64,000 nucleotides of DNA from an uncultured Acidobacteriota bacterium. GTDB taxonomy: Bacteria > Acidobacteriota > JAQAZP01. Position 1 is the first letter of the stretch. Each line of letters starts with the position of its first letter. Below, one piece after another: positions 20,837 to 54,674 of this stretch. The stretch lies in assembly GCA_963836075.1 (NCBI GenBank), contig CAWIIB010000001.1, positions 1,696,001 through 1,760,000 of the forward strand, given 5' to 3'. A program made the position numbers and the translations under genes. Under the pieces are notes generated by a model, which had not been told where the DNA came from, did not search any database, and saw only the letters and a list, made by a program, of their open reading frames with translations.

Positions 20837-22303
20837 CTACGGCGCCATCCCCTGAATCACGCACACCGCAGTATCGGTGTCCCCGGCCGGCGGGTAGGGC
20901 GGCTGGTTGTATGGTGCGGGCGTCACGTCCACGGCCACCAGGGTGAATGTGTTGTCCCCCACCAGTGCGCTTAGAGCCGGCAAGTTCTGATACCAGGACG
21001 TGCCGAAGCTCTCCCCCGGATCGAGGTTGGTCCACCCGGCCCGCCAGTTGACGTAATTCCCGCCGCCGGCCAGGCTGATGTTGATCCGCGCCGCCATCCT
21101 CCGCACCTGGTCGACATAGATGTTGGTCAGGCTGGTGCTCATCTGGGTGATGAAGGGCAGGGTGCCCGACGACGGGCTGCAGATCAGGCCGGCGGTGATG
21201 GTGGAATCCCGGCCCAGCATTACGCTGACGATGTCGTTGCCGCTGTCGGTCACGGCCAGGTCCTGGACACCGTCGCCACTCAGGTCGCCGGCCGCCACCG
21301 CGGTGGGAGAGAGGAAGGGTCCTCCATGACTGCGATACGGCTGGAAGGTGCCGTCCCCGTTGCCCCGCAGCACGGAGACCTGGGTGCCGCCGTAATCGGG
21401 TGCGGACAGGTCTGGGATACTGTCATTGTTCAGGTCTGCGACGGTGACCCTGTAGGGGGCACTGCCCACCGGGCAATTCACTTCTGTCTGCAGTGTGCCG
21501 TCCCCGTTACCCAGCAGCACCGCCACCACGTCACCGTTGTAGCATGCCGCGGCCACGTCGAGGTGGCCGTCGCCGTCCAGGTCGCCGATATCCAGGTTGT
21601 AGACGCCCCAGGTGGTGGGATGGAGAACCATGGCCTGGAAGGTCCCGTCACCGTTGCCGGCCAGGATTCCCACTCCCGCGCTCAAGAACGGCCCCACCAC
21701 CAGGTCTGGTGCGCCGTCCTCGTTGAAGTCGCCAATAGAAACTGAATAGGGCGTGTTGCCGGCATAGTATGTCACCCGGCCCTGGAACGAGCCGTCGCCG
21801 TTGTTGATGAATACGTTTACCGTGTTATCGGCCTGGGTGGCCACCACCATGTCCGAGTGGCCGCTGCCGTCCAGATCGCCGATGGCCACTGCCCTTGGAC
21901 CGTTTCCGCTAAGCATATGCTCCGCGGGCTGGAACGTCCCGTCCCCGTTGCCAAGGAGCAGCGAGATGTTGCTGCCGCTGCCATTGGCGGACACCAGGTC
22001 AAGGTAGCCGTCCCCGTTCAGGTAGCCGATGGCCGCCGCGTTGGGATCGTTTCCCACCCCGTAGCCCACCGCGGCCTGGAAGGTGCCGTCGCCATTGCCC
22101 AGCAGCACCGAGAGTTGTTGGCCCCACCAATCCGCGGTGACCAGGTCGAGATTGCCGTCGTCATCGAGGTCACCGATGGCCACGTGGTTGGGATGGTCGC
22201 TGACGGCGTAGTCCACCCCGGTTTCGAATTGCTGCGCCTGCAGCGCCGCTGCCGGAAGAAGACCAAGCACCAGCAGAAAAACAAACAGATTTCGGGTATT
22301 CAT
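20837..22303 (-). CDS. secreted FG-GAP/VCBS repeat protein with shared C-terminal domain
   Basis: Signal peptide; ~7 GDL[DN]GDG.LDL..VSVLLGNGDGTFQ repeats; ends DVTPAPYNQPPYPPAGDTDTAVCVIQGMAP. Confidence 0.9.
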   Translation of the reverse strand: MNTRNLFVFLLVLGLLPAAALQAQQFETGVDYAVSDHPNHVAIGDLDDDGNLDLVTADWWGQQLSVLLGNGDGTFQAAVGYGVGNDPNAAAIGYLNGDGYLDLVSANGSGSNISLLLGNGDGTFQPAEHMLSGNGPRAVAIGDLDGSGHSDMVVATQADNTVNVFINNGDGSFQGRVTYYAGNTPYSVSIGDFNEDGAPDLVVGPFLSAGVGILAGNGDGTFQAMVLHPTTWGVYNLDIGDLDGDGHLDVAAACYNGDVVAVLLGNGDGTLQTEVNCPVGSAPYRVTVADLNNDSIPDLSAPDYGGTQVSVLRGNGDGTFQPYRSHGGPFLSPTAVAAGDLSGDGVQDLAVTDSGNDIVSVMLGRDSTITAGLICSPSSGTLPFITQMSTSLTNIYVDQVRRMAARINISLAGGGNYVNWRAGWTNLDPGESFGTSWYQNLPALSALVGDNTFTLVAVDVTPAPYNQPPYPPAGDTDTAVCVIQGMAP

Positions 22304-22353
22304 GATGCCACCTCTTTCAGTTCTGCGGTTACAGTCACCCGGGACGACATCGC

Positions 22354-22396
22354 CCCGGTTATCCATATCGCGACAAAGAGCGGGACATCCGGACAG
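22354..22396 (-). promoter_or_regulatory. conserved 43-bp upstream element, copy 1
   Basis: 39/43 identical to 25662-25704; ~50 bp upstream of the start codon. Confidence 0.7.
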
Positions 22397-22421
22397 GATT
22401 ATTGACATAATTCAAAAATAA

Positions 22422-22531: not shown

Positions 22532-25500
22532 CTATGGCGAAATTCCCTGGACGGTGCAGACCTCCACGGCGGTGTCACCAGCCGGGGCATAGGGCGGCTG
22601 GTTAAAAGGCGCCGGTGTCACGTCCTGGCAGACCAGAGTGAAGACGTTGTTGCCCACCAGGGTGGGCAGGCCGGGGAAATTCTGTCCCCAGGTGGAGACG
22701 AAGCTGTCGCTGCCGGCGATGTTGGTATACCCGGCGCGCCAGTTGGGGAAGAAGGCCCCGCCGGCCAGCGAGACGTCGATATGAGCCGAGGCGCGGCGGA
22801 TGCTCGCCGTGTTGTTGACGATCTCGGCGGTGAAGACGCTGGTGAACGGCAGCTGGCCGGAGCTCGGGTTGGCGTCCAGCGTCGCGGCGATGGTCTGGCC
22901 CAGCGGCGAGGTGGAGACCTCAAGCGAGAACTGGCCCCCCTGCAACGCGTCGTACCCGTCGCAAATGATGTAGTAGGTGGTAGGGCCCGTGGGGGTGACG
23001 GTGACGCAGAAGTTCTCCGTTGCGCCGTAGCCGATCACGTCGCTGCCGCCGAGACAGCTGCTCCCCGGGGAAGTGCAGCTGGGAGTGAGGTATATCGCGG
23101 CGTCGAGGCCGGTGTCCGGCATCATCGTGACACAGATCTCGCTGGGCGAGGAAAGCTCCACGGCGTAGACCACGTCACGGCCAGGCGAGACATATCCGGT
23201 GCAGGGGTTGCCCGCGCCTGCATCGTAGTCGTCGCAGGCAGTGAAGCTGTGGTCATTGTAGGCGTAGCTACCATAGGCACTGGGAATCATTCTCGCGCCG
23301 GAGCAGAGGTCGTGGGCCGGGTGGGGGTTGACCTCCTGGAGGAAGTTGGTGGTGCCGTTCTGCGCCTCGCCGTAGGAGAACGAGACGAAGCTGCCCCCCA
23401 GGCTGAAGACGCCAGTGGCGTCGTCGGGCGCCTGGACGGTCCAGACCGCCTCTCCGGTGCTGCTCAGCGGCACCGTGCCCACCGTCTGCGGGTTGTCGCC
23501 GCTGACCAGCGTGTACCCCGTGGGCAGTTCCAGGGTCACGATCAGTTCGTGGCCGTGGATGTCGCCGGTATTGGCCACCTGGCCCACCACGGTGAAGGTT
23601 TCGGCGCAGGAGACGAAGGAGGGGCAGTTAAGGGAGAAGGAGGAGAAGTCCGGGCCGTCGACCTTGACCCAGAACTCCTCGGCGGCCAGCGCGTAGTCCT
23701 CGGAGGAGGCGCCGTCGATGGCGCTTGACCAGCAGTAGACCCTGGCCACCTTAAGCCCGTCGGACTGGGCCGAGACCTGGTGCACGTTATCGTCGGGGTC
23801 GAAGTCCCAGTCCTCGTACGTCCCGCCGGCCAGCTGGTCGTAGAGCCGCAGGTTGATGTCGGTCAGGGCATACCAGCTGGTGGGATAGGCGTCCCCGTTG
23901 TACCCCACGCGCCGCTGCCAGACCAGGGTGGCTTTCTCGTGCTGGTCCAGCCAGCCGGCATAGAGGTCGTAGTCGCCGTCCGTATTGCGGGGGGTGACGT
24001 TGTCGATGAAGTGGTCGCCGGCGTTGAACCAGGCCTCGTTGAGGTCGAGATAGCCCCAGCCGAAACGCACGTCCCAGTGGTCGCCGTCCACCGGCCCGTC
24101 ATCGGCGGTGGTCTGGGTGTTGTTTGAGGTCCAGGCGTCGGCCGTGTTGAGCAGCACCGCCTTCTGGGCCATCACCGTGCCGATGCCGAAGTCTTGAAGC
24201 AGCAAAGCGCCGGAGCCGGTCTTCGGAGCGGCCGAGCTGGTGCCGCCCAGGTTTTGCCAGCCGCCGCCGACGTCGGGGCTCCTGGTGTTGGTGCCCGGCG
24301 CGGTGATGTCCGGCTTGCGCCGGCCGTCCAGCGTGGGGCCGGTGCTGCTGCTGGAGGAGATTACGTCGTCTGTGCGGGTGGCCGTGTTGTTGTCCCACAT
24401 GTTGGCCGAGGCGATGAGGTTGAAGGCCGGTGCCGGGTGGGTGATTGTGGTCACACCATAGTTCTCATTCCCGGTGGACTTGCTGACCAGGAAGTCGTAA
24501 GTGCTGATCACCCCGTCGAAGAAACGGTCGAAACCACTGTAGTCCTCGTCATCGGCGATGCCGCAGCCCCAGGAGTAGTTGAACACCTCGGCGTTGTCGC
24601 CGCTGTAGGTCAGGATCCAGTCGAACCCGTCCATGGTGTTGTTTTCGCAGCCGGCGTTTTCGACGAAGATCTTGTCCAGGCCCGAGGCCAGGCCCTGGAA
24701 CGTGGAGTCGGTGCTGGCATACATGCCCGTGGTGCCGGTGCCGTGGTAGTCGTTTTCAGTGAAGTTCTCCACAAAGGTGTGGGAACTGAGCGCCGGATGG
24801 GTCTCGTCCACGCCGCCGTCGATGGAGGCGATGTCCCAGGGGTCGCCGTCGATCACCGGGCTGTCGTTGTGAAACGCGTCGGCGCCGGTGGAGCTGAACT
24901 GGTTGTCCAGTTCCGGTTCGCCTGCCCGGTTGGCGCTGATGGTGAGCACCAGGGGATGTCCGGACAGCAGTTGGACCACCGCCGGAGCGGCACGATAGCG
25001 GTGACGGCGTTCATCGCTGTGAGACGGCTGTTGACCTTCCCCCCGATCGACTGGATGAAGGCGCACAGCTCGTCCTGGCTGGGGGTGAAGGCCTGGCGCA
25101 GCTGCCGGGTGATCTCGTTGTCGGTCTCCGTGGTGAGGGTTTCCAGCTCCTGTTTCAGTTCGCTGATCCGTTGCCGGTCGGCAGCGGGCAGGTACTGTCC
25201 CCACCGGCGGACGAAGAACTGCTCCTCCACCGGGCTGAGCGAAGCGCCCTTGGGGAACCCCTTGCGCCGCAGGGAGGTGATCTCAGTCTTGATTTCCGCG
25301 GCCCGGTCGGCATGCAGCATCCTGACCTGGCGGCCGATGGCGTCTCCGCCCTGGGGCATGAGCAGGATATTCACCTCCACCAGCCCCTCGAGCGAACCGT
25401 TGCAGGTGTTCTGCGAGATGCCGGTCTCGACGATCTGCCGCAGCAGGGGGTCGATCCTGACCACCGGTTCGCGCTGGACGGGTTCACCCGATTCCGAGAC

Positions 25501-25596
25501 GTGGAACACCTCCTCCGCGGCCAGAGCCGGCAGCGCCAGGACTACCATGAAGACAAGGACGATGAGAAAGGACCCGATTCTCTCCTGATGCCACAT
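22532..25596 (-). CDS. S8 subtilisin-like serine protease with shared C-terminal domain (frameshift ~24989)
   Basis: Signal peptide and prodomain; triad SIDGGVD / HGTGTTG / GGTSSAAP; KPDITAPG; ends DVTPAPFNQPPY..CTVQGISP. Confidence 0.85.
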
Positions 25597-25661
25597 TTTT
25601 CTTCCTCCCCTGTGGATCGTTGAGCTTCCGGGCTCGGTAGAAACTTTGCAACCGATTCCGG

Positions 25662-25704
25662 CCCGGTTGTCCATATCGCGACAAAGGGAGGGAAATCCGG
25701 ACAG
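25662..25704 (-). promoter_or_regulatory. conserved 43-bp upstream element, copy 2
   Basis: Near-identical to 22354-22396; ~65 bp upstream of the S8 start. Confidence 0.7.
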
Positions 25705-25718: not shown

Positions 25719-28105
25719 TCAGGGGGATGAGAGAGGGGCCGACTCCTGCTCCGCCAGGGTCTGGTAGTGTGCCGCACGGTCGGTGTCGCCGGTGGTGCCA
25801 TAGAGTTGGGCAAGATACTCGTAGATTCTCCGGGTGCGCCAGTGATCGTTGCCGAGGATGGCCCGCACGCCTTCGAGACAGGTGAGCAGCTCCTCTTCGG
25901 CCTCAGCGTGGCGGCCCAGATGCATCAAGTGTACGGCCGCGTGTCGAGTGAAGCCACGGTTTCAACCAGTGACCTTCCTCGATGACATCGGGGGCCAACC
26001 CGATCGCCTCTTCAAGTTGGGGCAGTGCTTCTTCGTTGCGGCCCATCACACTTAATTGCAGACCGAGATTGTGCAGGCCGATGATCACGCTCTGGCTCTG
26101 GTCGCCGTGCACCCGCCGGCGGGTCTCCAGGGAGCGTTGGAACATTTCCAGGGCCTGGTCGTGCAGTTCCAGTTCCTGGTAGAGAAAGGCCAGATTGTTC
26201 AGGGCGATGGCGGTACGCGGGTGATCCTTACCAAACTCCTCTTGAAACCAGGCGTAGGCCTCTTCCAGAAGCGGCCTGGCCTCTTCGAGTTTCCCCTGCT
26301 GGCGGTAGACGTTGCCCAGCGACGCCATGGTGGTGATGGTCTCGTCATCCGGTGATTTCTTTACCGCCAGTGACCGTCTGAGACACTCTTCGAACAGCCG
26401 TTCCGCTTCGTCGATATCCCCCTTGTCCCAGTGCACCAGCGCCAGTTCGTGATAGGCCGTGATCCGCTCCGGGTGGTCCTCGACCAAGATTCTCCGCGGC
26501 CAGGTCAAACCCCTGGCGGACCCAACGCTCGGCTTCCTCCAGGTTTCCCAGGTCCAGATGCAGCGCGCCAATGTCCAGCAACAGTCCCACACGACTTTCC
26601 ACGGGGAAGTCGGGCAACTGGTTGCTGATTTCCATGGCCCGCAGCAGGTGCGGCTCGGCCTCGTCATACAGGCCGAGACCGTAATATGTGTAGCCCAGTC
26701 GATGGTGGGCCTGGGCCGCCACCTCCGGCTGGTCTTCCAGAGTCTTGTCCAGGGTTTGGGAAGCCCGTTCGAGAAGTTCCACCACCTTGACCTCGCGACC
26801 GTCAACCCAGGGGTCGGGGGCCTCCAGCATCTCGGAGAGGTAGGTGTTGAGCAGCTTGGCCTTCTCCGCTTCGGTCTCGGCGCGGGTGCGGGCCCTGGCG
26901 GCCGAGTTCCAGCCGGCCACAGAGATCACCAGGCCGGCCACCAGGGCGGTCAGGGCCAGGCCGGCCAGGGAGACCAGTCCCCGGTTGCGCCGGGCGAACC
27001 GCATGAACTGGTAGCCGAGGCTCGGCGGGCGGGCGCTGATCGGCTCGTGGTTCAGAAACCGCCGCAGGTCGGCGGCCAGTTCCGCGGCCGAGCCGTAGCG
27101 CCGGTCCTTCTCCTTCTGCAGGCACTTGCCGATGATCGTTTCCAGGTCGGCGGCAAAGGACTGGCCCGAGGCGCCGAGGGTGGAGGGATTCTCGTGCTCG
27201 ATGATCCGGGCCGCCTCGCTGATGCTCTTCCCGGAGATGGTCTGGGGCAGCCGCCCGGTGAGCAGCTCGTAGCCCAGCACGCCGAGGGTGTAGACATCGG
27301 AACGGATGTCCAGTTCCTCGTGCTGTCCCCGCACCTGCTCGGGGCTCATGTAGGCCAGGGTGCCGATGATCTGCCCGATGTCGGTCTGCATGGTGGTGGC
27401 CTGCAGGTCGGCGTCGGTGATCCGGGCCACGCCGAAGTCGAGCACCTTGGGCTGGCCGTCCGGGCGCACGAGGATGTTGGCCGGTTTGAGGTCGCGGTGG
27501 ATCACCCCGCGGCGGTGGGCGTGGTTCACCGCGTCACAGACCTTGATCAGCAGTTCCAGCCGTGCTTCGGTCCGCAGTTCGTGTTCCTCGGCGTAGCCGG
27601 GTCAGCGGCAGGCCGTCGACCAGTTCCATGGCAAAGAAGGGCTGGGTCCCGGTGGGGGTCTCCAGGGTTGCGGCCTCGAAGATCTGGGCGATGCCGGGGT
27701 GGTCCAGACGGCCCAGCACTTCGGCTTCCAGTTCGAAACGCCGGAGCAGTTGCGGGGAGACGGCGCCGCTGCGGATCAGCTTCAGCGCCACCTGGCGTCT
27801 GGGGTGCTCCTGCTCGGCCCGGTAGACCACGCCCATCCCGCCGGCGGCCAGGACTTCGATGATGCGGTAGTTGCCGAGGGATTTGCCGACCCACGGATCG
27901 TCGCGGACCATCGAGCCGATGAGCCGGCTGTTCCATGAATCCGTCCGCCGCGGCATCGGCATCGAGGAGCGAGGCCACCTCCGCGTGCAGTTCCCCATCG
28001 TCACCACAGGCATCCCTGAGAAAGGTCTCGCGCTGCTCAACGGGCAGACCGATGGGCCTCTTCCAACAGCTCCATCACCCGTTCCAACCGCTGGTCATCA
28101 GACAT
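25719..28105 (-). CDS. Ser/Thr protein kinase with TM and TPR repeats (about 5 frameshifts)
   Basis: Pieces in successive frames: [40 protein letters not shown], then TPRs (HP.TA.ALNNLA); start overlaps the ECF stop (ATGTCTGA). Confidence 0.85.
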
Positions 28106-34007: not shown

Positions 34008-36102
34008 ATGACTGAACGTATCACCCAAGCTGCCCTAATCCTGTTGCTGGTTGCCCTGGTATCCGTCCCGGCCATGGCCGGTTGGCCCGACGACCCGGCG
34101 GAGAACATGGTGATCTGCGACCGCAACGGCAGGCAGTCATCGACCAAGATCGCCGCCATCTCGGACGGCGGCTGCTACATCAGCTGGTATGACAAGGCCT
34201 CCGGAAACTACGACGTCTACCTCCAGCGTCTGAGCGGCAGCGGGGTTGCCCAGTGGCCCGCCAACGGCCTGCTGGTCAGCGCCCACCCCCAGGAGACCTG
34301 GGTCAACGACTACGACCTGGCCTGCGACCAGGACGATCATGCCATCGTGGTAATCAACGACATCCGCGACGGCTCGGACCGCGACATCTTCGCCTACCGC
34401 ATCAGCCCGGCCGGCGAGTTCGTCTGGGGCGCCGACGGCCTGACCCTCTCGGCCAATGACGGCTACGAACCCGATCCCCGGGTGACGGTGACCAGCGACG
34501 GGAACCTGGTTTTCGCCTGGCAGGAGGAGAACAACCTGCACCTGCGCAAGGTGACACCGGCCGGCGCCGACCTCTGGGTCCCGGCGACCGTCACGCTAAC
34601 CGCGATCTACGGGTACTCAGTTACCCGGCTGGCTCCGGCGCCAGATGACGGGGTGATCCTCCAGGCACTGCTGCACCATGGCCCGGACACCTACGATCCA
34701 AAGCACCTGACCATCTTCAAGTTTGGCCGCAACGGCAACCACATCTGGAATCCTGCCGGCGAAACGGTCTCCGATGCCGGCGGTTTCGGACCCGACATGC
34801 GGCCCGACCTGATTCCCGATTCCAAGGGCGGTGCGTACTGCCACTGGTACGACACCCGGACCAGTTCCCAGCACACCTTTGTCCAGCACGTCACCGCGTC
34901 CGGCACCATGGCCTGGACCGATGACGGTGTTCTTTGCTCAACAATCGGGAGTGAGCTTCAATTTGCCCCGTCCATCACCCGTCTACCCAACTCCGACGAC
35001 ATCATCGTCTTCTTCCCCTTTGCCGACGCCTACCAGTCTCGGAGCGGTGTGAGGGGCCAGCGGCTGAATCCGGCCGGCCAGCGACTCTGGTCCGACGACG
35101 GCGTGGTCCTGGACCCGCTGGAATTCCGCAACCGCTGGAACGTCCGGGCCCAGGCCCAGGAGGATGGGGCCATCGTCACCTATCTCGACGATGTGGCCGA
35201 GCTAAGCACCAAGGTGATGGCGATCAGGGTGGACATGGACGGCAACCAGGTCTGGCCAACATCGCCGATTGAGATGACCAGCATTGCCCGCACCAGGGGC
35301 ACGATGGCTGACTGTGCAAACTCCTCAGACCAGGTGATCTGCGCCTGGGAGGACCGGCGCAACGACAGCAGCGGTGACATCTACCTGCAGAACATCAATC
35401 CCGATGGGAGCCTCGGCCCCCTCTCCTCGCTGCCCGGCATACCGCGCCTGGTTGCCGGCCCCGGGCCGGGGTATGACAACCCGCCGATGGTGCGGATCTT
35501 TCCGCCGGCCCAGGGTGCCGAGCACCTTGAAGAATTCGACGCCTATGGCCCGGAGCACTATGGCGTAAATGTGTGCTGTGGCGATGTGAACGGCGACGGC
35601 CGAGCCGAGTTGCTCACCGGGGCCGGCCCCGGGGACATCTACGGTCCCCACGTGCGGGGTTTTGCCGTGGACGGCACGCCGATCCCCGGCCTGAGCTTCC
35701 TGGCCTACGGCACCAACAAGTACCGGGGTCAACGTGGTCGCCGGCGACATCGACGGGGACGGCTTCGACGAGATCGTCACCGGCGCCGGGCCCTCGGCGC
35801 TCTTCGGCCCCCACATCCGCGGCTGGAACGTTGACGGCGGGACTGTTGCCGAGGTCTATGGAATGAACTTCTTTGGCTGGGACCCGGAATACGTCAGTTA
35901 CGGCGCCGTTGTCAGTTCCGGCGCAGACCTGGACGGCGATGGCCTGGACGAGCTGCTGGTGGCCGCCGGACCCGATCCCCACATGGATACGAATGTGCTG
36001 GCGTATCGCTACAACGGAGCCGGTGTAACGCTCCAGTTCGATCTCACCGCTTTCGACGATGATATGACCTACGGCGCCAATGTCGCGGCCGGCCGATTCT
36101 AG
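34008..36102 (+). CDS. secreted beta-propeller protein with C-terminal FG-GAP module (frameshift ~35723)
   Basis: Signal peptide; W.D.R..DIY.Q repeats; tail of GD.[ND]GDG..E..TGAGP...GPH.RG repeats ending GANVAAGRF. Confidence 0.8.
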
Positions 36103-37036: not shown

Positions 37037-37069
37037 ATGCAGGCAATCCACAGAGTGAGGGGGCAGCAA

Positions 37070-40785: not shown

Positions 40786-42457
40786 TCAGGGCGCGATGCC
40801 CACCACGGTGCAGCTGCCGCCGTCGGTATCGCCGGACGGCATGTAGGGCGGCTGGTTGTACGGCGCCGGGGTCACATCCTCCACCGTGAAGGTGAAGGTG
40901 TTGGCCCCCACCAGCGCGGTGAAGGCGGGCAGGTTCTGCTGCCAGCTGGTGCTGTAGGTCTCTCCCGGGCCGAGGTTGGTATACCCGGCACGCCAGTTGT
41001 TGTAGACCGAGCCCCCGGCCAGTTCCACGCCGATTTTACCGGCCATGCGGCGGGTGCCCTCGGCGGCCAGGTTCTCCATCTCCACGGCTCATCGTCACGG
41101 TGAACGGCAGCACGCCGAACTGGGGCAGGCAGCTCAGCGACGCGGCAACCGTCTGGTTGGAGGTCACCGTGATCACGTTGGTGAAGATGTCGGGGTTGCC
41201 GTTCTGGGTGGAGGGGTAGCAGGGATAGACGTAGTCACCGCCCACGCCCAGGCCCAGGTAATCGCCGAGGAACTGGCTCGAGCCGCCGGCGTAGTAGCTG
41301 TCAAAGGAGGCCGGGGTGAGGCGGTACTCGGTGAAGCTGGCGCCGCCGTCAACACTGAGGGCGTAGTAGGCGTCGAACATGCCGTGCTGCACGCCGTCGT
41401 TCTGCACCGTGTGGCGGGTGTCGAGGTAGAGCACGTGCAGCCGGCTCTCCTGGTCCACCTCGATCCAGGGCCACAGCTGGTCGCCGGCCGGGCTGGAGTC
41501 GCCGTTGATCACCTGCGGAGTGGTCCATGTCGATCCCTGGTCGGTGGATTTGGTCAGGTAGGCGTCGACGTTGCGGTTGCCGCCGTCCCAGCCGGTGGTG
41601 TCGAAGTAGGTGCAGTAGAGCGTGCCGTCATTGGGGTCCACCGCCAGGCCGTTCAGCGAGGGGACGCGGAAGGTGCCGGGGAACCGGGCCGAGTCGTAGA
41701 TGTCCCAGGGGTCCATCCGGGTGGCGATGGTGATCGCCGGGTCGAAGGAGACACCGCCGTTGAGGCTGCGCCGGAGCATCACCCCGTCGTAGTAGTCCCA
41801 GTAGGTCACGTAGAGCTCGCCGCCCGGGCCCACCTTGGGCAGGAAGCCGACACCGCTGCCCAGGGAGACCGGCGACGTCCAGCTGTCACCCATGTCGGTG
41901 GAATGCTGACAGCCGTAGTTGAAGGTGTGGTAGACCCGGGTGCTGTCCGGAATGCCGGGCACGATGCCCGCGGCCAGCCAGCCCTTGTCGATGCCGCCGT
42001 CGACGATGGTCATCACCGACGGCTGGAAGGTGGCGGCCCCGGGGTTCTTGCGGGCGACAAAGACGCCGCCGTTGCCGGTCCAGGACATGCCGCCGGCCCA
42101 GAGGGTGCCGGTGCGGTTGTCATAGCAGGTCATCGGGTCGCCCTCGGTGCTCCCCTCGTGGCCGGCCGGCGGGCGGAGCAGCATGTCGGTCCAGGTCTGC
42201 CCGTAGTCGTTGCTCACCGAGATCCCGGTGCGGTACTGCCCCATGCGGTAGTCGTTCCAGCCGCCCACCACCTCGTTGGGGTGCAGGTGCACCGAGGCCA
42301 TGGTGGTCTCGTTGGCCGTGGCCGTGCCGCCATCGTCGATGCGGACCTGCGGCCCCACGGTCACTTCCTGGGCCGCGGCCCCGAGGGAGAACAGGAGCAG
42401 GCCGCAGCAGGCGGCCAGCCCGAAGATTCCAAAACGTATCCCGTACTTCTGTATCAT
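40786..42457 (-). CDS. secreted Asp-box (BNR/sialidase-like) beta-propeller with shared C-terminal domain (frameshift ~41087)
   Basis: Signal peptide; SNDYGQTW, STDMGDSW, SLNGGVSF, STDQGSTW, SVDGGASF; FLGDY; ends DVTPAPYNQPPY..CTVVGIAP. Confidence 0.85.
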
Positions 42458-42514: not shown

Positions 42515-43249
42515 TCACTTCGCCGGTTCCGGCATCTTCTCCCGCAGCAGGGGCAGGAACTGGGCGGGCACCTTGTAGCCCAGGGCCTCGGCCCGGGCCA
42601 CGCCGTCCCAGGCGCTCTCGTAGTCCTCGAGGTAATAGTCGAGGACCGCCAGGCGGCCGTAGGCCTCCCCGTGGTCGGGGTCGAGGTCCAGCACCTGCAG
42701 CCAGGCCTGCTTCGACGCCTGGTAGTCGCCGGACATCTGCAGGGCCCAGGCCAGCTGCTTCCGCGCCTCGAAATGGCCGGGAGCGAATTCCAGCGCGGTG
42801 TTGAAGGAGGCGATGGCCTCGTCCCCCAACCCCTTGCGCAGCAGGGCCTGTCCCAGGCCGGTGAGGTGTTCCGGGCTCTCCGGGGCCATGATCACCGCCC
42901 TGGTCAGGGCACCGATGGCAGCAACGCGGTCATTCTTTTCAAAGAGGTAGAAAAGGCCCCGCTGGTAGGCATCACCGGCAGTGGCGAAGACCTCCGCATC
43001 GGGGAGCGGTTGGGCCGCCGCCGGGTCCACCACCACCCGGCCCGTGTCATAGGACAGGCCGCGCAGGGCATCGGCCATCCGCTTTTCCTTGTAGCTCTGA
43101 CCGGCGGACGGGGGAGACAGTTCGCCGGCCTCCACCGGGGCCGTCTCGTCGATCACGGCCGCCTGCTCCGACTGCTGTTCGCTGCTGCAGCCGCTGAGTC
43201 CAACGGCGCAGACCAGCAGCGCCAGGGCAAGAAATCTGAGGGTGATCAT
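42515..43249 (-). CDS. TPR lipoprotein
   Basis: Lipobox LSGC; several TPR repeats. Confidence 0.8.
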   Translation of the reverse strand: MITLRFLALALLVCAVGLSGCSSEQQSEQAAVIDETAPVEAGELSPPSAGQSYKEKRMADALRGLSYDTGRVVVDPAAAQPLPDAEVFATAGDAYQRGLFYLFEKNDRVAAIGALTRAVIMAPESPEHLTGLGQALLRKGLGDEAIASFNTALEFAPGHFEARKQLAWALQMSGDYQASKQAWLQVLDLDPDHGEAYGRLAVLDYYLEDYESAWDGVARAEALGYKVPAQFLPLLREKMPEPAK

Positions 43250-43428: not shown

Positions 43429-46400
43429 TCAGGGAGCCACACCGGTCACGGTGCAGCCGGCGCTGTCGGTGTCGCCGGCCGCCGGATAGGGCGGCTGGTT
43501 GTATGGCGCCGCGGTCACGTCCGCGGCCAGCAGGGTGAAATCGTTGGCCCCCACCAGCGTGCCCAGCGCCGGGATGTTCTGGAGCCAGTTGGTGGTGAAG
43601 GTGTCCCCGCCGGCCACGTTGGTGTAGCCGGAACGCCAGTTGGCGAAATACTGGCCCGCGGCCACGGTGACGTGAAGCTTTGCGGCCAAGGTGCGGGTGA
43701 AGCCGGTGTAGAGGTTGGTCAGGCCCACGGTCATGTTGGTGGTGAAGGGCAGCGTCCCCGACGAGGGCACGCAGCTGAGCGAGGCGGACACCGTGTCCAC
43801 CGCGCCGCTGTCGCAGTCCAGTTCAAAGACGCTGAAGGCGTCGATCCCGGCTTCCACCACCGACCCGTCGTTGAGGTCGGAAGCCTCGAAGCGGACCTTC
43901 ACCGTGCTGGTGGGGGTGACGAAATCGGCCACGGTGAAGGTGTGGACGTTCCAGCCGCTGGGGCTCTGCGGGCCCACCGTTTCCACCAGGACCCAGCTGG
44001 CGCCGTCGTTGTTGGAAACATGGATGTTGAACAGGTCGTTGTTCGGGTCCCCGCCGACGTTGTTGGTGTACCACAGGGCGAAGCTTACCTGCGCCGCCGG
44101 CACAGCGGACAGGTCGAGGGTCGGCGAATGGAGCCAGGTGATCCCGCCGTCCACGTCGGTGTCGTCGTCGGCGTTCTGGGTCAGGTAGCAGTTGCCCGAC
44201 CCGTCGTAATCGATGGCCGGGTCGCCCCGGTCACCACCGCCCACCGGGATGCCCCGCTCCCAGGCGCCGGCGGTGAGACCGCTGCCGTCGATCACGGTCC
44301 AGCCCAGGTCGTCCTCGAAGTCGTCGCCGAAGGTTTCGGACAGCTGACCCACCTCGGAGGTGTAGTTGCCGCTGACCGGGTTGCGCACCAGGCCGGCGGT
44401 GACGCCCTCGGCGCTGAAGAAGTATTCAGGGCTTTCGTTGCAGTCGGCCGCCGGCAGGGTGGCCGTGTAGAGGTCGCCACTCAGGTGGGTCAGCGGGTAT
44501 TCGTCAAAGAACATGCCGCCCGACCGGTAGTGCAGCCTGGCCGACCCGGTGACGTAGCTGTCGGCGTTCTCCACGATCTGGACGTTGATCGTGGTGCTCA
44601 CCCCCGGATCGACATACTCCGGCGTGCCGTCGGGGAGGGTGATCTTGAGCAGCGCGGTCATGGCCAGATCGGGGTTGCCCCACAGGGCGCCCCACTCGAA
44701 GGCCTCGTACTTGATGTAGTTCCAGAGGCCGTTGAGATACATCTCGCGCAGTCCGGCCTGCAGCGCCTGCCCCTGGGTGTAGTCCCCGGAGGTGACGCGG
44801 GTGGTGAAGAAGTAGTCCAGCGACTGGCTCGATCCGTCGTAGGCGCTGTTCCAGCCCGGGCAGCCCATGGCCACCTTGGTGGCGCCCACAAATCCCACCG
44901 CCCCCTGCCGGATCATCGACTGGCCGATGTTCAGCGAGTCGGTGTCCGAATTGCTGCAGGCGTCGGCGAAGATGATCGCCGGGTAGTCGTCATCGAGGGA
45001 GGAGCAGTCCGAGGACTGGATGAAGGCCGGGGCGCCCAGGCCGGCGATGTGGGACGAGGTGGGCGACCCGTGGCCGGCCCAGTTGACAAAGGCGAAGCGC
45101 CCGGTGGGCCAGACCGCCATCACGTTGCTGTTCAGCAGCTCGTAGTCACAGGCGAAGCTGGAGTGGTAGTCCGCGTTCTGCTCGTACATCCGGGTCATGG
45201 TCCAGTCGGCCATCCAGGGCTGGTCCACCTTGGCTTCCATCAGCTCCGCGTTGTCGGTGTCGGCCCAGAAGTAGCCGCCGAGGAGCAGGATGTTCTGCTT
45301 GTAGGAGAGGTCGGTGTTCTGCTCGAAGGCCACCGACTTGTTGCAGATGTTCGTCACGTCGGTGGCCCCGCTCCAGGGGATGCGGCCCACGTTGATCTCG
45401 GCGTAGAAGTCGATGGGGTCGCTGTTCTCGCCCCACTGGTGGTCGCCGTCGGCGTCCCACGACTGGTTGTCGGGCAGCGAGAGCTCGGCGTAGTAGAAGT
45501 CGGTCTCCGGCTGGCCGTAGCCCACGTCCTGGGCGCAGCGCCGCATGGGCACGTCGTCGTAGTGGCCCACCAGCAGCAGGTCCTCGATGCCCCACTCCGC
45601 GGTGGGGTACTTGTCGATGAGGAAGTTGCGGATCCGCTCCGCCTGGTCGTAGCCGGTGTAGTTGGCGTCGATCCAGCTGGTGGTCACCACCTGCACGGTG
45701 CGGCCCTTGCTCACCTCGTGATTCACCAGCGGGGTCACCGCCGAGGTCAGGCTGTCCAGGGTGACGATGACGAAGTCGTAGAGCCCGCGGCCCTGGCGCT
45801 GTCCGGCCGGGTACCACTGCTGGGCCTGCGTGTAGTTGAGCACGATCTCCCGGGCAGTCTTTTCGGTGCCGGGCAGCCAGTCGCTCATCGGGGCCACCGA
45901 GCCCTGGTGCGGCATGGTGTAGTGGACGTTCACCGTGACCCGCGGGTGGTGGGTCAGGATCCCGCTGGCCGCGGCGTAGGTGAAGGGGGATACCCGCACG
46001 TCCACCAGGTTGTACTTGCGGTAACCGGCACGGCCCACCATTTCAGCCACCACGGCGGGCCAGGGCGCGTCGCTGCCGTAGGCCGCATGATGGTTCTGCT
46101 GGTAGCGCTCCAGGTCCCTGCGGTAGAGCTCGGGGTTCTCGTCGCCGATCACCCGCGGCAGCGGCGCCGGCGCCACGGCGTGGGAACCGGAAAGCACGGT
46201 GCTGCCCTGGCAGGTCCAGGTCACCCCGGTGGCTGTTGCGCCGGGGGGGATGGCCACGGCAAAGATCCGTGCCGGCATGTTCGGTTTTCCGGGAACCAGC
46301 AACCGCCCGAACCCCTCCACGGCAAGCTCTCCATCCTGATCAATGGTGTAGACGGAAGCGTCCACGGTCACCGACACCGTCCCGGTATCGGCGGCCCGGG

Positions 46401-46497
46401 CATCGAAGCCCGGAAGGAGAAAGAGGGCGGCAACGATCAGGCCGCAAAGGAGAACGGTTGATCGACGGCCGGCGGAAGGAGCGCAACACATGGGCAT
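43429..46497 (-). CDS. C25 (gingipain-like) cysteine peptidase with propeptide and shared C-terminal domain
   Basis: PGKPNMP propeptide, IRNFL..LLLVG, D..Y..L, VGRIP, WAGHG (His), ADACS (Cys), LWGNP; ends DVTAAPYNQPPY..CTVTGVAP. Confidence 0.9.
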   Translation of the reverse strand: MPMCCAPSAGRRSTVLLCGLIVAALFLLPGFDARAADTGTVSVTVDASVYTIDQDGELAVEGFGRLLVPGKPNMPARIFAVAIPPGATATGVTWTCQGSTVLSGSHAVAPAPLPRVIGDENPELYRRDLERYQQNHHAAYGSDAPWPAVVAEMVGRAGYRKYNLVDVRVSPFTYAAASGILTHHPRVTVNVHYTMPHQGSVAPMSDWLPGTEKTAREIVLNYTQAQQWYPAGQRQGRGLYDFVIVTLDSLTSAVTPLVNHEVSKGRTVQVVTTSWIDANYTGYDQAERIRNFLIDKYPTAEWGIEDLLLVGHYDDVPMRRCAQDVGYGQPETDFYYAELSLPDNQSWDADGDHQWGENSDPIDFYAEINVGRIPWSGATDVTNICNKSVAFEQNTDLSYKQNILLLGGYFWADTDNAELMEAKVDQPWMADWTMTRMYEQNADYHSSFACDYELLNSNVMAVWPTGRFAFVNWAGHGSPTSSHIAGLGAPAFIQSSDCSSLDDDYPAIIFADACSNSDTDSLNIGQSMIRQGAVGFVGATKVAMGCPGWNSAYDGSSQSLDYFFTTRVTSGDYTQGQALQAGLREMYLNGLWNYIKYEAFEWGALWGNPDLAMTALLKITLPDGTPEYVDPGVSTTINVQIVENADSYVTGSARLHYRSGGMFFDEYPLTHLSGDLYTATLPAADCNESPEYFFSAEGVTAGLVRNPVSGNYTSEVGQLSETFGDDFEDDLGWTVIDGSGLTAGAWERGIPVGGGDRGDPAIDYDGSGNCYLTQNADDDTDVDGGITWLHSPTLDLSAVPAAQVSFALWYTNNVGGDPNNDLFNIHVSNNDGASWVLVETVGPQSPSGWNVHTFTVADFVTPTSTVKVRFEASDLNDGSVVEAGIDAFSVFELDCDSGAVDTVSASLSCVPSSGTLPFTTNMTVGLTNLYTGFTRTLAAKLHVTVAAGQYFANWRSGYTNVAGGDTFTTNWLQNIPALGTLVGANDFTLLAADVTAAPYNQPPYPAAGDTDSAGCTVTGVAP

Positions 46498-47462: not shown

Positions 47463-49780
47463 TTAGAAACTCCCCGCCGCCACCGTGGCGCCGTGACTGA
47501 TCCCGCTGTCAAATGCGTCGAGCGCGAACCACTGGCTCACCGCGGAACCGTCGTAGCGGAAGACCGCCACCGGCGAGCCGAGGGCCGGGTCGGGCCCGCC
47601 GCCGACCACGATCTCGTCCCGGCCGTTGCCGTCGAGGTCCGCCGAGGCGAACACCCGGGCGCCGAAGGCCGCCGTGCCTTCGGGCAGGGCAAAGAAGTTC
47701 AGGCCGGCCATGGTCTCGAGGGTGGCGCCGTCGTAGTTCCAGCCGCGGACATGGGCGCCGAACAGGCCGGAAGGACCGGGGGAGGTGATGATCTCGTCCA
47801 GACCGTCGCCGTCCACGTCGCCGCAGGCCACGTTCACCCCGAACTTGCTGGTGCCGTAAGCCATGAAGCTGACCGCGGACAGTGGGGCGGCCGCGCCCCC
47901 GTCCACGTTCCAGCCCCGCACGTGGGGCCCGAACACCGCACCGGGACCGGCGCCGGTGACGATTTCGTCATACCCGTCGCCATCGATGTCGCCGGCGGTA
48001 ACGTTGATTCCGAACTTGAGGGTGCCGTAACCGAAATAGCTCACCCCGGTCATGGCCGACACCGTCTGCGAAGCGCCGTAGTGGAAGGCCCGAACGTGGG
48101 GCCCGAACACGGCTCCCGGGCCGGCGCCGGTGATGATCTCGTCACGGCCGTCACGGTCCAGGTCACCGGCGGCCACGTTGACCCCGAACTTCAGTGTGCC
48201 GTAGGCCAGGAAACTGAGCCCGGCCACCGGGGTCCCGTCGGTTTGGAAACCGCGAACGTGGGGGCCGTACACCGCCCCGGGGCCGGGTCCGGTGAGCAGC
48301 TCGTCCACGCCGTCACCGTCCACGTCGCCGCATGAGACGTTGACGCCGTAGCCGCCGGCGCCGTAGGCAGCGAACTCGGCCTCGTGGGTGGCGCCCGCTT
48401 CCGCCGGGAAAACGCGGACCAGCGGCTGGTTGTCCGGGTCCGGGCCGGGCCCGGCCACCAGCCGTGCTTCCCCCCGCCGCCGGCGATGGTGATCACGTTG
48501 GTGAAGATGTCCGGGTTGCCGTTCTGGGTCGAGACGTAACAGGGGTAGACCCGGTTGCCGCCCACGGCCAGCCCCATGTAGTCGCCGAGGAACTGGCTCG
48601 ACCCGCCGGCGTCGTAGCTGTCAAAGGGCTCGGAGGTCAGCCGGTATTCGGTCCAGCTGTCGCCCCCGTCCTCGCTGATGGCGTAGTAGGCGTCGAACAT
48701 GCCGTGCAGGGCGTCGTCGTCCTGCACGGTGTGGCGGCTGTCCAGATAACAGGTGTGCAGCCGCCCCTGCTGGTCCACCTCCAGCCAGCACCAGAACTGG
48801 TCGCCGGCCGGGTCGGCGTCACCGTTGATCACGTGGGGCGTGGTCCAGTTGGATCCCTGGTCGGTTGATCTGGTCAGGTAGATGTCGACGTTGCGGTTGC
48901 CGCCGGACCAGCCGGTGGTGTCGGAGAAGAGGCAGTAGAGCGTGCCGTTGTTGGGGTCCACCGCGAGGTAGCTGAGGGCCGGCACGCGAAACCGCCCGGG
49001 GAACCGGTCGCCTCCCTGGGTGTCCCAGTAGTCCATGCGGGTCGCGATGCGGATTGGCGCTTCAAAGGAGAGGCCGCCATTGAAGCTGCGGCGCAGCATC
49101 ACCCCATCGTAAAAGTTCCACGAGGCTACATAGAGTTCGCCGTTGGGACCCACTCGCGGGAGATAACCGATTTCAGAGCCGAGAGAGACCGGGTTGTTCC
49201 AGCTGTCCCCCATGTCGGTGGAGCGCTGGCAGCCGTAGTTGTATGTGCAGTAGACGGAGGTACTGTCGGCGGTGTCGGGCCCCCGGCCGGCGGCCATCCA
49301 GCCCTTGTCGATGCCGCTGCTGTTGTAGATCATCACCGTCTCTTCGAACGAAGTCTGCCCGGCGTCCATGCGGGCCGCGAACACTCCGCCGTTGCTGGTC
49401 CAGGACATGCCGCCGAACCAGAGCGTGCCGGTGCGGTTGTCGTAACAGGCCATGGGGTCGCCGCCGTAGCCGTAGGAGGAACCGGGAGGAGGCGGAAAGA
49501 TGTCGTCGGCCCAGGTGGCCCCGCCGTCGGTGGTCAGGGAGATCCCGTTGTTGTTCGACGAGCGGTAGTCGTTCCAGCCGGCCACGGCAATCATCGGACT
49601 GGCGTGCACCGAGGCGATGGTGGTCTCGTTGGACCAGTTTGAACCACCGCCCGGGTCGATGCGGACCTGGGGGCCCATGGTGACCTCCACCGCCCCGGCG
49701 GGGAAGGCTGCCGCCAGCACGATCAACAACAGCAGGGCGAAGCCCCGCAACGGTATTCTGTTCAGGCGATCCATCTCCAT
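47463..49780 (-). CDS. secreted Asp-box beta-propeller (paralog of 40786-42457) with C-terminal FG-GAP module (frameshift in G-run ~48470)
   Basis: Same propeller up to TQNGNPDIFTNVIT, then RLVAGPGP..VRVFP and five GD.DGDG repeats, ending GATVAAGSF; GAGGAGG RBS. Confidence 0.85.
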
Positions 49781-49899
49781 CCTCCTCGATCCTGGCAGCA
49801 GTGACGGAGGGAGCACGGCACCAGGCGGTGTTCAGGCAAGGCACTGATTTCGGCTGGAACAATTCTAGCACGAGAGCGGGCGGCGGGACGAAATGCAAA

Positions 49900-51260: not shown

Positions 51261-54200
51261 ATGAAAACCAGACTCTTCTTCCTCATGGCCGGATTGCTCT
51301 GCGCCGCCACGGCGTATGGCGGATCCCTGCAGATCCACACCGCCCATGCCTCCGGGCAGGTTACCGCTCCGTCCCTCCCGCCGCTGTCGGTCAGCGCCGC
51401 GGCTTCGGGCGGGACCGTCTTCTCCGGCGATGACCTCCAGTGGCTGGGCCAGTCCGGGGAGCCCCGCATCCCCTGGCAGGTGGTGACCCTGCTGCTCCCT
51501 CCGGACGCGGACAGCTCGACGCTCACCGGCCGGTTGAGCGGAGCGTCGTATGGCGAGGTGGCGGGAACCTGGCGGGTGGACCCGCTTCCCCCGCCGGCCA
51601 CCCGGAACAGATCGGGAGAAACCGTGTATGACTGGCCGGCAGGGAAAAGGCTGGCGGACGGCCATGACCTCGATATTTACGGGTCGAACAGCCTGTGGCC
51701 CGCAGAGGGTGTTCGCCTCCTCGGCTGCGGCCGGCTGCACGGCTGGCTGCTCTGCGAGGCGGCCGTGCCCCTGGTGCGCTGGAACCCGGCCACCGGCCGC
51801 CTGGTGCGGCTGGAATCGGCGCACCTGCGCCTCGAGTTCGAACGCACCCCGGTGGGCAGCGCCCAGCCGGTTCATCACCTGCGTAACCCGCGGGGAGCGG
51901 AGCGGGTGGCCCGCCTGGCGGCCAACTTCGAGTCAGCAGCCACCGCGTACGGCAACGGCCGCTCCAGCGAACGGGCCAGCGGCTACACCATCGTCACCAC
52001 CAACGCCGTGGTCAACAGCTCCGCCGCCCTCGCCGGCTTCATGGCCCACAAGGCCTCCCTCGGCTTCACCGTGCGGCTGGTCACCGAGGACGACTTTGGC
52101 GGCGGTCAGGGCGACGGCGCAGCGGAAAACATCCGTGCCTGGCTCCAGGCCAACTACCTGGCCGACGAGACTCTGCACGTCCTGCTCATCGGCAACCCGC
52201 ACCCCGGCGAGGGCGAAGTGCCGATGAAACGCTGCTACGACAGCGTGGACGGGATGTACGAGATGCCCACCGACTTCTTCTACTCCGACCTCTCCGGCGA
52301 CTGGGACCTCAACCAGGACGGCAATTCCGGCCAGTGGGAGGACATGGGGGACGGCGGCATCGACCGTTTCTGGGAGGTGCTGGTGGGGCGGATCCCCTAC
52401 TACGGCCAGATCACCGACACCGATCACATTCTGCAGAAGCTCGTCGATTACGAACAGGATACCGACACCCAGTGGCGGCGCCGGGCCCTGCTGCCCATGG
52501 TGCCGCTGGACGACGCCACCCAGTCCTACCAGCTGGGCGAGCAGATGAAGGCCGGCTACCTCGAAGCGGCGGCCATCCCCTCGCACCGCCTCTACCACGA
52601 CGACTACGGGCTGGTTCCCCTGCCGGAGACCATCCCCTCCAGCTACGAGAACGTGATCAACCGCTGGAACGACGCCCCCTGCGGGCTGGTGGTCTGGATG
52701 ACCCACGGCTGGAACGAAGGCGGCGCCGAAGTGGCCACCAGCGACTCGATCCTCGGCCTTGACGACGCCTTCCCCGGCGCCACCTGGCACGGCTCGTGCG
52801 GCAACGCCGAACCGGAACACCCGCGCAACATCGCCTACGCCCTGCTGCGCCACGGCGGGATCGCCACCAACGGGGCCACCCGCTCCAGCTGGTACTACGT
52901 CGGTGAAACAAACTTCACCGCGTCCACCAGCATCGGCGGCCTCGGCTACCAGTACGCGGCAAAACTGGTCGCCGGACAGAGCTGCGGCCAGGCCTGGGCC
53001 GACGTGCGCCAGGAGATGGTCCCCGGCATCTGGTCCAATTTCGCGATGCACAACCTCTACGGCGACCCCTCGCTGGTGGTGATGCCTCCGCCGCCCGCCT
53101 TCACCGTCCGGCCCACCGACCTCTTCGCGGTCTCCGGGGTGCGCAACGAGGTGTGGCACGGCGGCCAGCGGACCTTCACGCTGAAGAACAATAGCGGGTC
53201 GCCCTTCAGCTGGTCGGCAACCGGCTCCACCCCGTGGCTCGCCCTGGACCCGGCAGGCGGCACCCTTGCCGGGGGCGAAGAGGTCGAGGTGCTGGCACAG
53301 ATCTCCTCCTCCTCCGGCGAGCTGCCGGTGGGGACCCAGCAGGCACAGATCATCTTCAGCGAGGCCGCCGGAGGCGTCACCATTCAGCGGGACGTACAGG
53401 TGGAAGTGAAGCCGCGGGTGATGGCCATCCACTGGAAACTGGACGAGCAAAACGGGTTCATCGCCTACGACGGGAGCGGTTTCGACAACCGCGGGTTCCT
53501 TGAAGGGGGGATACGCTTCCAGAACGACGCGGTTCCCGGACGCTTCGGCGGCGCGCTGCGCTTCCACGAGAGCGGCTACATGATCAACATGGAGCACCTG
53601 GGTCTCCAGGACATCCCGCCGCCCTGGACCATGGCCATGTGGGTCAAAAAGACGGAGAACATCACCGGGACCAGCTCCCTCTTCTCCTCACCCACCGCGG
53701 CGCTGCGCCTGGAGCACTGGAACAACGACGACGTGGGGTTCACCATCTTCGGCGGCGGGGGCGACCACAGCTTCGGCTACTCCGCCCCGGTGGGCCAGTG
53801 GGTCCACCTGGCACTGGTGGGCAGCGAATCGAGCACGTCGCTCTACGTCAACGGCCTGCCCTGGGCCACGGTGGACACGCCCATCGCCGCGCCGATGAGA
53901 TCGCTCTGCACCTCGCTGCTCAGGCTGGCCGCCGAGCTGGATGACGTGCGGGTCTACAACCACACGCTCTCCGCCGAGGGGATCAAGGCCCTGGAGCGTG
54001 GCGGCCAGGCCATGAACCCCGCACCGGCCGACGGCGCCGCCGGCATCGCCGACGGCTCGCTGCTCAGCTGGGTGCCGGGTGTTTCCGCCGTCTCCCACAA
54101 CGTCTACTTCGGCACCGACGCCGGGGCGGTGGCCGCGGCCACCGTCGATTCACCGGAGTATGCGGGAAACCAGAGCGGGACCGACTGGCAGCCGGCCCTC

Positions 54201-54674
54201 GTGCCGGGGGAGGTCTATTTCTGGCGGGTGGACGAGGTGACCTTCGGCGGCGGCAGCCTGGGGCCGGTGCGCGGGGACGTCTGGACCTTCAGCTCCACGG
54301 CGGTGGAGACGGTGAGCGTGCAGCTGGCCTGCGTGCCGTCATCGGGCACCCTGCCCTTCAGCAGCAGTTTCACCGCCACCCTGACCAACATCGCCGCCGG
54401 GGAGAACCGCCGGGTGGCCGCCCGGCTGGACGTCACCACCGCCGGCGGTCAGAGTTTCCCGGGCTGGCGGGCCGGCTGGAGCAACCTGGCGGACGGGGAG
54501 AGTTTTGTCGCCTCCTGGACCCAGCAGTTCCCGGCCCTGGGGTCACTGGTGGGCGTCAACAGCTTCCTGCTGCGGGCCGTGGACGTGACACCGCCGCCGT
54601 ACAACCAGCCGCCCTGGCTGCCGGCGAGTGACAGCGATACCGGCCAGTGCACGGTGACAGGGACCGCGCCCTGA
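51261..54674 (+). CDS. C25 peptidase - BACON-like - LamG - shared C-terminal domain
   Basis: IRAWL..VLLIG, TDFFYSDL, VGRIP, MTHG (His), GSCGN (Cys), NLYGDP; HWKLDE..WVHLA..LYVNG..LDDVRVYN; YFWRVDEV; ends DVTPPPYNQPPW..CTVTGTAP. Confidence 0.9.
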   Translation: MKTRLFFLMAGLLCAATAYGGSLQIHTAHASGQVTAPSLPPLSVSAAASGGTVFSGDDLQWLGQSGEPRIPWQVVTLLLPPDADSSTLTGRLSGASYGEVAGTWRVDPLPPPATRNRSGETVYDWPAGKRLADGHDLDIYGSNSLWPAEGVRLLGCGRLHGWLLCEAAVPLVRWNPATGRLVRLESAHLRLEFERTPVGSAQPVHHLRNPRGAERVARLAANFESAATAYGNGRSSERASGYTIVTTNAVVNSSAALAGFMAHKASLGFTVRLVTEDDFGGGQGDGAAENIRAWLQANYLADETLHVLLIGNPHPGEGEVPMKRCYDSVDGMYEMPTDFFYSDLSGDWDLNQDGNSGQWEDMGDGGIDRFWEVLVGRIPYYGQITDTDHILQKLVDYEQDTDTQWRRRALLPMVPLDDATQSYQLGEQMKAGYLEAAAIPSHRLYHDDYGLVPLPETIPSSYENVINRWNDAPCGLVVWMTHGWNEGGAEVATSDSILGLDDAFPGATWHGSCGNAEPEHPRNIAYALLRHGGIATNGATRSSWYYVGETNFTASTSIGGLGYQYAAKLVAGQSCGQAWADVRQEMVPGIWSNFAMHNLYGDPSLVVMPPPPAFTVRPTDLFAVSGVRNEVWHGGQRTFTLKNNSGSPFSWSATGSTPWLALDPAGGTLAGGEEVEVLAQISSSSGELPVGTQQAQIIFSEAAGGVTIQRDVQVEVKPRVMAIHWKLDEQNGFIAYDGSGFDNRGFLEGGIRFQNDAVPGRFGGALRFHESGYMINMEHLGLQDIPPPWTMAMWVKKTENITGTSSLFSSPTAALRLEHWNNDDVGFTIFGGGGDHSFGYSAPVGQWVHLALVGSESSTSLYVNGLPWATVDTPIAAPMRSLCTSLLRLAAELDDVRVYNHTLSAEGIKALERGGQAMNPAPADGAAGIADGSLLSWVPGVSAVSHNVYFGTDAGAVAAATVDSPEYAGNQSGTDWQPALVPGEVYFWRVDEVTFGGGSLGPVRGDVWTFSSTAVETVSVQLACVPSSGTLPFSSSFTATLTNIAAGENRRVAARLDVTTAGGQSFPGWRAGWSNLADGESFVASWTQQFPALGSLVGVNSFLLRAVDVTPPPYNQPPWLPASDSDTGQCTVTGTAP

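Follow-up and report, generated by a model that had tools for sequence, protein, structure and literature searches.

Within a 64,000-nucleotide stretch of the genome of an uncultured Acidobacteriota bacterium (hereafter the window; contig CAWIIB010000001.1, positions 1,696,001 to 1,760,000), five genes encode proteins with differing bodies that all end in the same C-terminal domain of ∼125 amino acids (aa), referred to here as the tag. Alignment of the five tails gave identities of 51–61% and 28 invariant columns. Pfam assigns the bodies to FG-GAP, Peptidase_S8, BNR_2 and, twice, Peptidase_C25, and scans of the five proteins with Pfam and NCBIfam assigned no family to any tail. Four of the genes lie on the reverse strand, namely those for an FG-GAP repeat protein (20837..22408, a listed open reading frame [ORF]; tag domain ∼20840–21217), the likely start of which is the Met preceding the signal peptide MNTRNLFVFLLVLGLLPAAALQA, an S8 subtilase (22532..25674, comprising overlapping ORFs 22532–25204 and 24853–25674; tag domain ∼22535–22909), a BNR/Asp-box protein with a signal peptide (40786..42457; tag domain ∼40789–41133) and a C25 peptidase with a signal peptide (43429..46497; tag domain ∼43432–43809) in which a choice-of-anchor-J-like region also gives a weak score (26.8 bits against a cut-off of 30). 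The fifth gene, on the forward strand, encodes a second C25 peptidase, with a signal peptide, BACON_2 and LamG-like domains (51261..54674; tag domain ∼54294–54671). Tag-domain coordinates were converted from profile matches in genome coordinates. Every copy in the window terminates in G-x-[AS]-P immediately before the stop codon, and neither a transmembrane helix nor a basic tail was found in any of the five. The original prediction, made from the window sequence by itself, had held that five proteins with four kinds of body share a terminal domain lacking both of these features, and all five copies were found where it had placed them.

The tag is not restricted to this locus. When a profile built from the five tails was used to search the 6.23-Mb genome from which the window derives (94.7% complete), the best 150 of 303 candidates were scored, giving 150 matches with E-values of 1e-42 to 1e-67, which exclude chance. 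A search of all 53,244 six-frame ORFs with hmmsearch detected 231 tag-domain matches in 224 ORFs; 203 of these matches end ≤3 aa from the stop codon, 7 end 4–10 aa from it and 21 lie further away. Full-length terminal copies number 177 genome-wide, and in a crude gene call the tag is present on 174 of 4521 genes (about 4%). The non-terminal matches are mostly weak second matches or fragments cut by frameshifts, and two are real exceptions: one protein carries an internal divergent copy together with a terminal copy, and in another a divergent copy is located between duplicated Cys-rich domains. Among 150 database representatives the tag is terminal in 144, forms tandem doubles in 8 and is truly internal, with further domains after it, in 3, and these rare tandem and internal copies keep the conserved loop described below and lose the free G-x-A-P end. 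The earlier description of the tag as always single and terminal is therefore accurate for the window and too strict for the genome as a whole, given the protein with internal and terminal copies. Frequent internal or tandem occurrence had been named beforehand as an observation that would count against a terminal tag, and such copies are rare.

The proteins that carry the tag are diverse. A Pfam family was recognized (E ≤ 1e-5) in 42 of 87 representative tagged proteins and was lacking in the other 45. The families include FG-GAP, right-handed beta-helix (Beta_helix), PQQ/BamB-like propellers and Kelch, the peptidase families S8, C25, C1 and M28, the enzyme and repeat families GH5, BNR and FGE-sulfatase, and the lectin-like and other domains LamG, PA14, LTD, CBM96 and F5/8-C. 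A start resembling a signal peptide, scored by a crude hydrophobicity rule, was present in 126 of 177 tagged ORFs compared with 209 of 600 control ORFs. Among representatives, 104 of 135 have such a start, and a lipobox was detected in only 4 of 149 tagged proteins. About 180–200 otherwise unrelated Sec-exported proteins per genome carry the tag at the C-terminus, and the suggestion that it is borne by signal-peptide proteins of many kinds, made from five examples, is upheld.

Modeling with AlphaFold2, using 31 paralogous copies, predicts a compact domain of ∼125 aa that folds as an 8-strand immunoglobulin (Ig)-like beta-sandwich (mean pLDDT 95.2), in keeping with the beta-sandwich originally proposed. 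The first and last strands each hold one near-invariant Cys, and because of these positions in the model the pair is predicted to form a disulfide. The longest loop consists of an invariant proline-rich stretch (DVTPxPYNQPPYPPxGD), aromatic residues are conserved at W59, W76 and Y109, and the chain terminates in G-x-A-P. The stretches PSSGTLPF and NWRAGYTN are likewise invariant. No Pro/Thr-rich linker precedes the domain, which is fused to its bodies without a special linker, and in C25 orthologs tag and body have diverged alike, with identities of 76–80% for the tag and 77–82% for the body.

Scans of the 31 copies against Pfam and NCBIfam at E-values up to 10 yielded no family match, the exceptions being NPCBM_assoc (0.015) and SSI (0.029) in Pfam, each for single copies only, and at the same threshold the CARDB, PKD and FnIII families had no sequence match to the tag. 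A sequence-profile search of the PDB returned a sole match at E 0.83, and in an ESM Atlas look-up the best score, 0.77, was to CARDB-like clusters. At the level of fold the likeness is broad: the RbmA FnIII domain (4be5) ranked top (Z 11.9, rmsd 2.6 over 105 aligned residues), followed by the Ig-like domain of AlkC and transglutaminase barrels (Z about 11), CARDB (3idu) and PKD (4xed), both at Z 9.8, and a carbohydrate-binding module (CBM; Z 8.7), and dextranase and glycoside hydrolase (GH) domains were also among the best-matching Ig-like domains. In total 68 chains matched at Z ≥ 8, with sequence identities of 8–16% among the fold matches; since so many unrelated sandwiches score alike, it is only the fold that the tag shares with Ig-like families. 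The view that the tag belongs to no named family is thus supported by the lack of a confident match in Pfam, NCBIfam and PDB sequences. A confident assignment to CARDB or to a CBM, which had been set out in advance as contrary evidence, was not obtained, the likeness being of a generic kind (Z 9.8–11.9). No published description of the domain was found in the literature searched, although one may exist beyond that scope.

Distribution of the tag is narrow. Two congeneric species gave 139 and 112 matches (best 150 candidates scored in each), and the GTDB class of the host consists of these three genomes only. The tag was found in none of 38 genomes representing 31 other Acidobacteriota families, one of them flagged as unpublished and given no weight in any claim, so that the lineage-specific character ascribed to it at the outset is substantiated. 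Out of 1.84 billion representative proteins, 503 match the tag profile at E ≤ 0.001, and when 185,579 species genomes were scanned by pattern, it was detected in two Acidobacteriota metagenome-assembled genomes (MAGs) as well as in a third MAG, labeled Candidatus Sulfomarinibacteraceae, on a single 4.2-kb contig. That contig shares 98.3% DNA identity with C9:520113-523751 of the genome studied here and hence does not represent an independent lineage; it probably belongs to the window species and was binned elsewhere. The window stretch itself is present in salt-marsh and marine-sediment metagenomes from about 12 studies. Judged by these sequence comparisons, the tag constitutes a new C-terminal tag-domain family, restricted to a single class-level lineage.

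What occupies the same position in related proteins was surveyed using the body of the first C25 peptidase of the window and 120 listed homologs (58–100% identical). A PF00404 dockerin tail was detected on 23 of the 120, a hydrophobic tail on 17, the C-terminal domain (CTD) of the type IX secretion system (T9SS; PF18962) on 9 and an fn3-like tail on 7, and a 58-member cluster of tails was found, when read by eye, to contain dockerin-type repeats. The new tag is present on only 3 of the 120, all from the host's own genus. The expectation that C25 peptidases elsewhere bear a T9SS CTD at this position was thus correct, with the addition that dockerins are more numerous there. For the S8 body, the tag is carried by the 7 closest of 120 homologs, most of the others having no recognized tag. 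Since tails differ among homologs in this way, the C-terminal position appears to be a slot in which lineages place different localization modules. The C25 body of 43429–46497 (696 aa) has 58–70% identity to proteins from Zixibacteria, Planctomycetota, a Desulfobacteraceae MAG and an archaeal MAG (labeled Thermoplasmatales), and this unusually high conservation across phyla suggests that the body has spread horizontally, its tail being swapped by lineage. Eight dockerin proteins are encoded in the host genome.

Two of the five tagged genes in the window are interrupted in the deposited record. The Asp-box gene is split inside the tag into ORFs 41036–42457 and 40786–41085 by one extra base at 41086. 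In three public DNA runs from two studies, the single contig that covers this place in each run has one base fewer, showing that the gene is intact in those populations; the break is a record error or (rare) variant and not the mark of a dead gene. The S8 gene appears to have a second frameshift, because its signal peptide and propeptide are encoded in the upstream ORF 24853–25674, which overlaps ORF 22532–25204 over 24853–25204; an 86%-identical homolog is a single 1020-aa protein carrying the tag. The initial count of five signal-peptide proteins consequently needs qualification for the S8 protease, in that ORF 22532–25204 has no signal peptide of its own and the upstream overlapping ORF supplies one. 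Other split genes in the window are those for a Ser/Thr kinase (26345–28040), an FG-GAP protein (34008–36102) and a BNR/FG-GAP protein (47463–49816). Contig depth rises 10- to 30-fold at 40842–40955 and 43464–43577, the stretches encoding the DVTPAPYNQPPY loop, where conservation of the tag is highest, and contigs from many paralogs map to this loop even at 90% DNA likeness. The tagged genes were hardly covered at all by one RNA run.

Several further genes lie close to the tagged ones in the window. A TPR lipoprotein with the lipobox LSGC (42515–43249) is encoded on the same strand between two tagged genes, and a 258-nt metatranscriptome contig matches it without a difference at 42918–43175. 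Just downstream of the tagged Asp-box gene, the region 36189–40590 holds an extracytoplasmic function (ECF) sigma factor, a short, weak secretin-like ORF (37037–37855; E 1.8e-6) and a Ser/Thr kinase that is apparently fused by a frameshift to an FGE-sulfatase domain.

In the wider genome, the family most strongly enriched near tagged genes has 193 members, 95 of which are neighbors of such genes, and consists of other secreted beta-helix/FG-GAP proteins. These 193 form a single-linkage group without the tag, based on crude gene calls (e.g., C9:2997581-2999869, C1:939751-942453 and C9:1232770-1234851); the 95 are located ≤3 genes from a tagged gene, and in those examined, the C-terminus is an FG-GAP propeller whose final strand repeatedly reads ...GVNVAAG[RW][FY]. 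Small enriched families comprise a GDSL lipase, an anti-sigma factor, TPR-CHAT and a MurJ-like gene with extra copies on contig C5; 4 of the 6 members of an anti-sigma-like family adjoin tagged genes. The densest island of tagged genes (C1:1.909-1.936 Mb) contains tandem cargo only.

Exported proteins with C-termini resembling those of outer-membrane (OM) proteins (OMP-like ends) were also collected. In all, 69 were found and 39 scanned, most of them belonging to known families (TonB receptors, BamA, FadL-like proteins and porins). Three candidates were set aside as partners for the tag: an unknown protein with an OMP-like end (L146), relatives of which occur in 5 further Acidobacteriota families; a genus-confined, charged non-barrel protein (L154), which belongs to a glycosyltransferase locus and for which no link to the tag was evident; and TamB-Omp85 fusions, which are shared with other Acidobacteriota and are not genus-specific. 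The fusions are two single ORFs of ∼2,180 aa (C9:2267534-2274079 and C9:1011957-1018487) that join TamB, POTRA and an Omp85 barrel. ORFs of similar length matching residues ∼890–1000 to 2181 occur in at least six other Acidobacteriota families, and elsewhere the parts are separate adjacent genes. A degraded look-alike of the TamB-Omp85 gene on C9, 53–85% identical and with many in-frame TGA codons, is present on contig C5 (∼16.5–23.2 kb), which additionally holds split MurJ-like ORFs and may be a poor-quality duplicate or a contig of a second strain.

Taken together, a shared sorting or anchoring (localization) tag of some kind is the probable role of this domain. It is the best-supported class of explanation because the copy number is high, the exported cargo unrelated, the position near-terminal and the loop invariant, and because a dockerin or T9SS CTD takes the place of the tag on homologous bodies elsewhere. 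As to mechanism, we tentatively favor a lineage-specific docking or anchoring module. Under this proposal the cargo would be exported by Sec, and the tag would fold and form its disulfide in the periplasm; the cargo would then use a general route out of the cell (the genome encodes two full secretins), after which the tag would dock, the face bearing the conserved loop binding a single shared receptor of the envelope, be it a protein or a surface glycan. Proteases, beta-helix proteins, FG-GAP proteins and glycosidases would thereby be retained on the surface of this sediment bacterium.

A number of observations weigh against such a docking module. That the tag is so strictly terminal and its final residues invariant suits an export signal at least as well. 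Surface location, binding and persistence of the domain after maturation are predictions of the proposal, the disulfide is deduced from the positions of two conserved Cys, and the rule behind the signal-peptide counts is a crude one. Among 742 neighbors of tagged genes, enrichment was evident only for secreted cargo paralogs and ECF/anti-sigma regulators, the screen of the 39 proteins with OMP-like ends produced no tag-linked candidate, and no receptor or partner for the tag was found by either approach. From the role first put forward, that of a secretion, S-layer or scaffold docking tag, the shared sorting or anchoring class is retained as the favored one, whereas the machinery that was to go with it was not found.

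It is rather doubtful that the tag is instead an export signal, read in the periplasm by an undescribed OM translocon that would be an analog and not a relative of the T9SS, and subsequently cleaved or attached. Such a signal would agree with the strictly terminal single copy in most proteins and its invariant G-x-A-P end, with copy numbers typical of sorting signals, with an Ig-like sandwich like that of the T9SS CTD and with the presence of the latter at this position in the 9 C25-body homologs noted above; furthermore, the tagged C25 peptidases (five of about ten C25 paralogs in the genome) coexist with three full-length untagged paralogs. In the host genome, however, PorV had 0 matches (the control responded only below the cut-off), and against PorU the three untagged C25 paralogs reached at best 50.4 bits and the two tagged C25 peptidases of the window 19.9 bits, compared with a cut-off of 420. 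SprA and GldM also had 0 matches, although the searches for both were silent in every control genome as well. No T9SS CTD was detected above the cut-off, the sole TIGR04183 match being below it and away from the tag, and hhalign of the tag against nine T9SS CTD tails gave a probability of 0.15%. The OMP-like-end screen likewise brought out no lineage-specific translocon candidate, and internal and tandem copies of the tag exist. In its fullest form, in which the tag would be the cargo signal of a T9SS-unrelated OM export-and-attachment system, a class-level invention of these Acidobacteriota serving ∼4% of the proteome, the idea is similarly more speculative than docking. A docking or anchoring role is favored over an export signal because no translocon was found and general export routes exist, because the counterpart seen most often on homologous bodies is dockerin, and because tandem and internal copies keep the loop and lose the free end.

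The remaining readings fit less well on account of the breadth of the cargo. That the tag resembles a CBM or an adhesin in binding substrates or particles, and so tethers enzymes to sediment organics or biofilm matrix and not to the cell, is unlikely. The best fold matches are associated with matrix or carbohydrate (RbmA, dextranase/GH domains, CARDB and the CBM), the aromatics W59, W76 and Y109 are conserved, and tandem copies occasionally occur, but the tag is found on ∼200 proteins of every functional class, mostly not glycosidases, is nearly always single and terminal, and is limited to one genus whereas CBMs spread widely, and the 68 chains at Z ≥ 8 mark the fold matches as generic. That the tag is a PPC-like folding or maturation aid, which would help export or inhibit enzymes, be removed later and have no role in location, is quite improbable, for although PPC is also a C-terminal beta-sandwich on secreted proteases and one representative (P0028) has PPC plus the tag, most of the cargo is not proteases, the tag has no match to PF04151, and a surface loop invariant in 31 paralogs points to one common partner and not to many bodies.

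More than once, new machinery for secretion or anchoring has been discovered by way of a shared C-terminal tag, as in the case of sortase, exosortase and the T9SS. In the present case, an uncultured bacterium of salt marsh and marine sediment, roughly one gene in 25 bears an uncataloged tag and the known tag systems were not found, so that the tag delineates a whole extracellular toolkit in one step. A hidden Markov model of the tag also offers a handle for annotating hundreds of metagenome proteins, and if its partner is indeed a new translocon or surface scaffold, a new cell-envelope system would be revealed in a poorly known phylum.

The tag can be compared with several known systems. The RbmA FnIII domain, CARDB, PKD, and the transglutaminase and alpha-2-macroglobulin barrels resemble it in fold class only. 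PEP-CTERM, GlyGly-CTERM and LPXTG tags consist of a short motif, a transmembrane helix and a basic tail, whereas the new tag lacks a hydrophobic helix and finishes with a beta-strand and G-x-A-P-stop; in the host genome exosortase (PF09721) had 0 matches, the control search being positive in 1 genome, and PEP-CTERM gave one weak match. PPC (PF04151) is, like the tag, a C-terminal beta-sandwich on secreted hydrolases, from which the tag is set apart by having no PF04151 match, cargo beyond peptidases and about 200 copies per genome. The type I dockerin (PF00404) is a C-terminal module on secreted enzymes whose location is set by binding, which is what is proposed for the tag, and it is the commonest tail on homologs of the C25 body of the window; a dockerin, however, is a small Ca-binding helical repeat, whereas the tag is predicted to be all-beta and has no PF00404 match. 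The T9SS type A CTD (Por_Secre_tail, PF18962/TIGR04183) is likewise a C-terminal Ig-like sandwich, borne by Sec-exported proteases, adhesins and glycosidases in tens to hundreds of copies per genome. It has no sequence or profile likeness to the tag and comprises 70–100 aa in 7 strands, compared with ∼125 aa, 8 strands, a Cys pair and a proline-rich loop in the tag, and to our knowledge Acidobacteriota lie outside the usual range of the T9SS. With negative sequence tests and no more than a generic fold match, the tag can be placed in neither the T9SS CTD nor the dockerin family, while by analogy it would work like one or the other. The job proposed for it, retention of exported proteins at the cell surface, would be the one performed elsewhere by dockerins, by attachment of T9SS CTD cargo to A-LPS and by PEP-CTERM.

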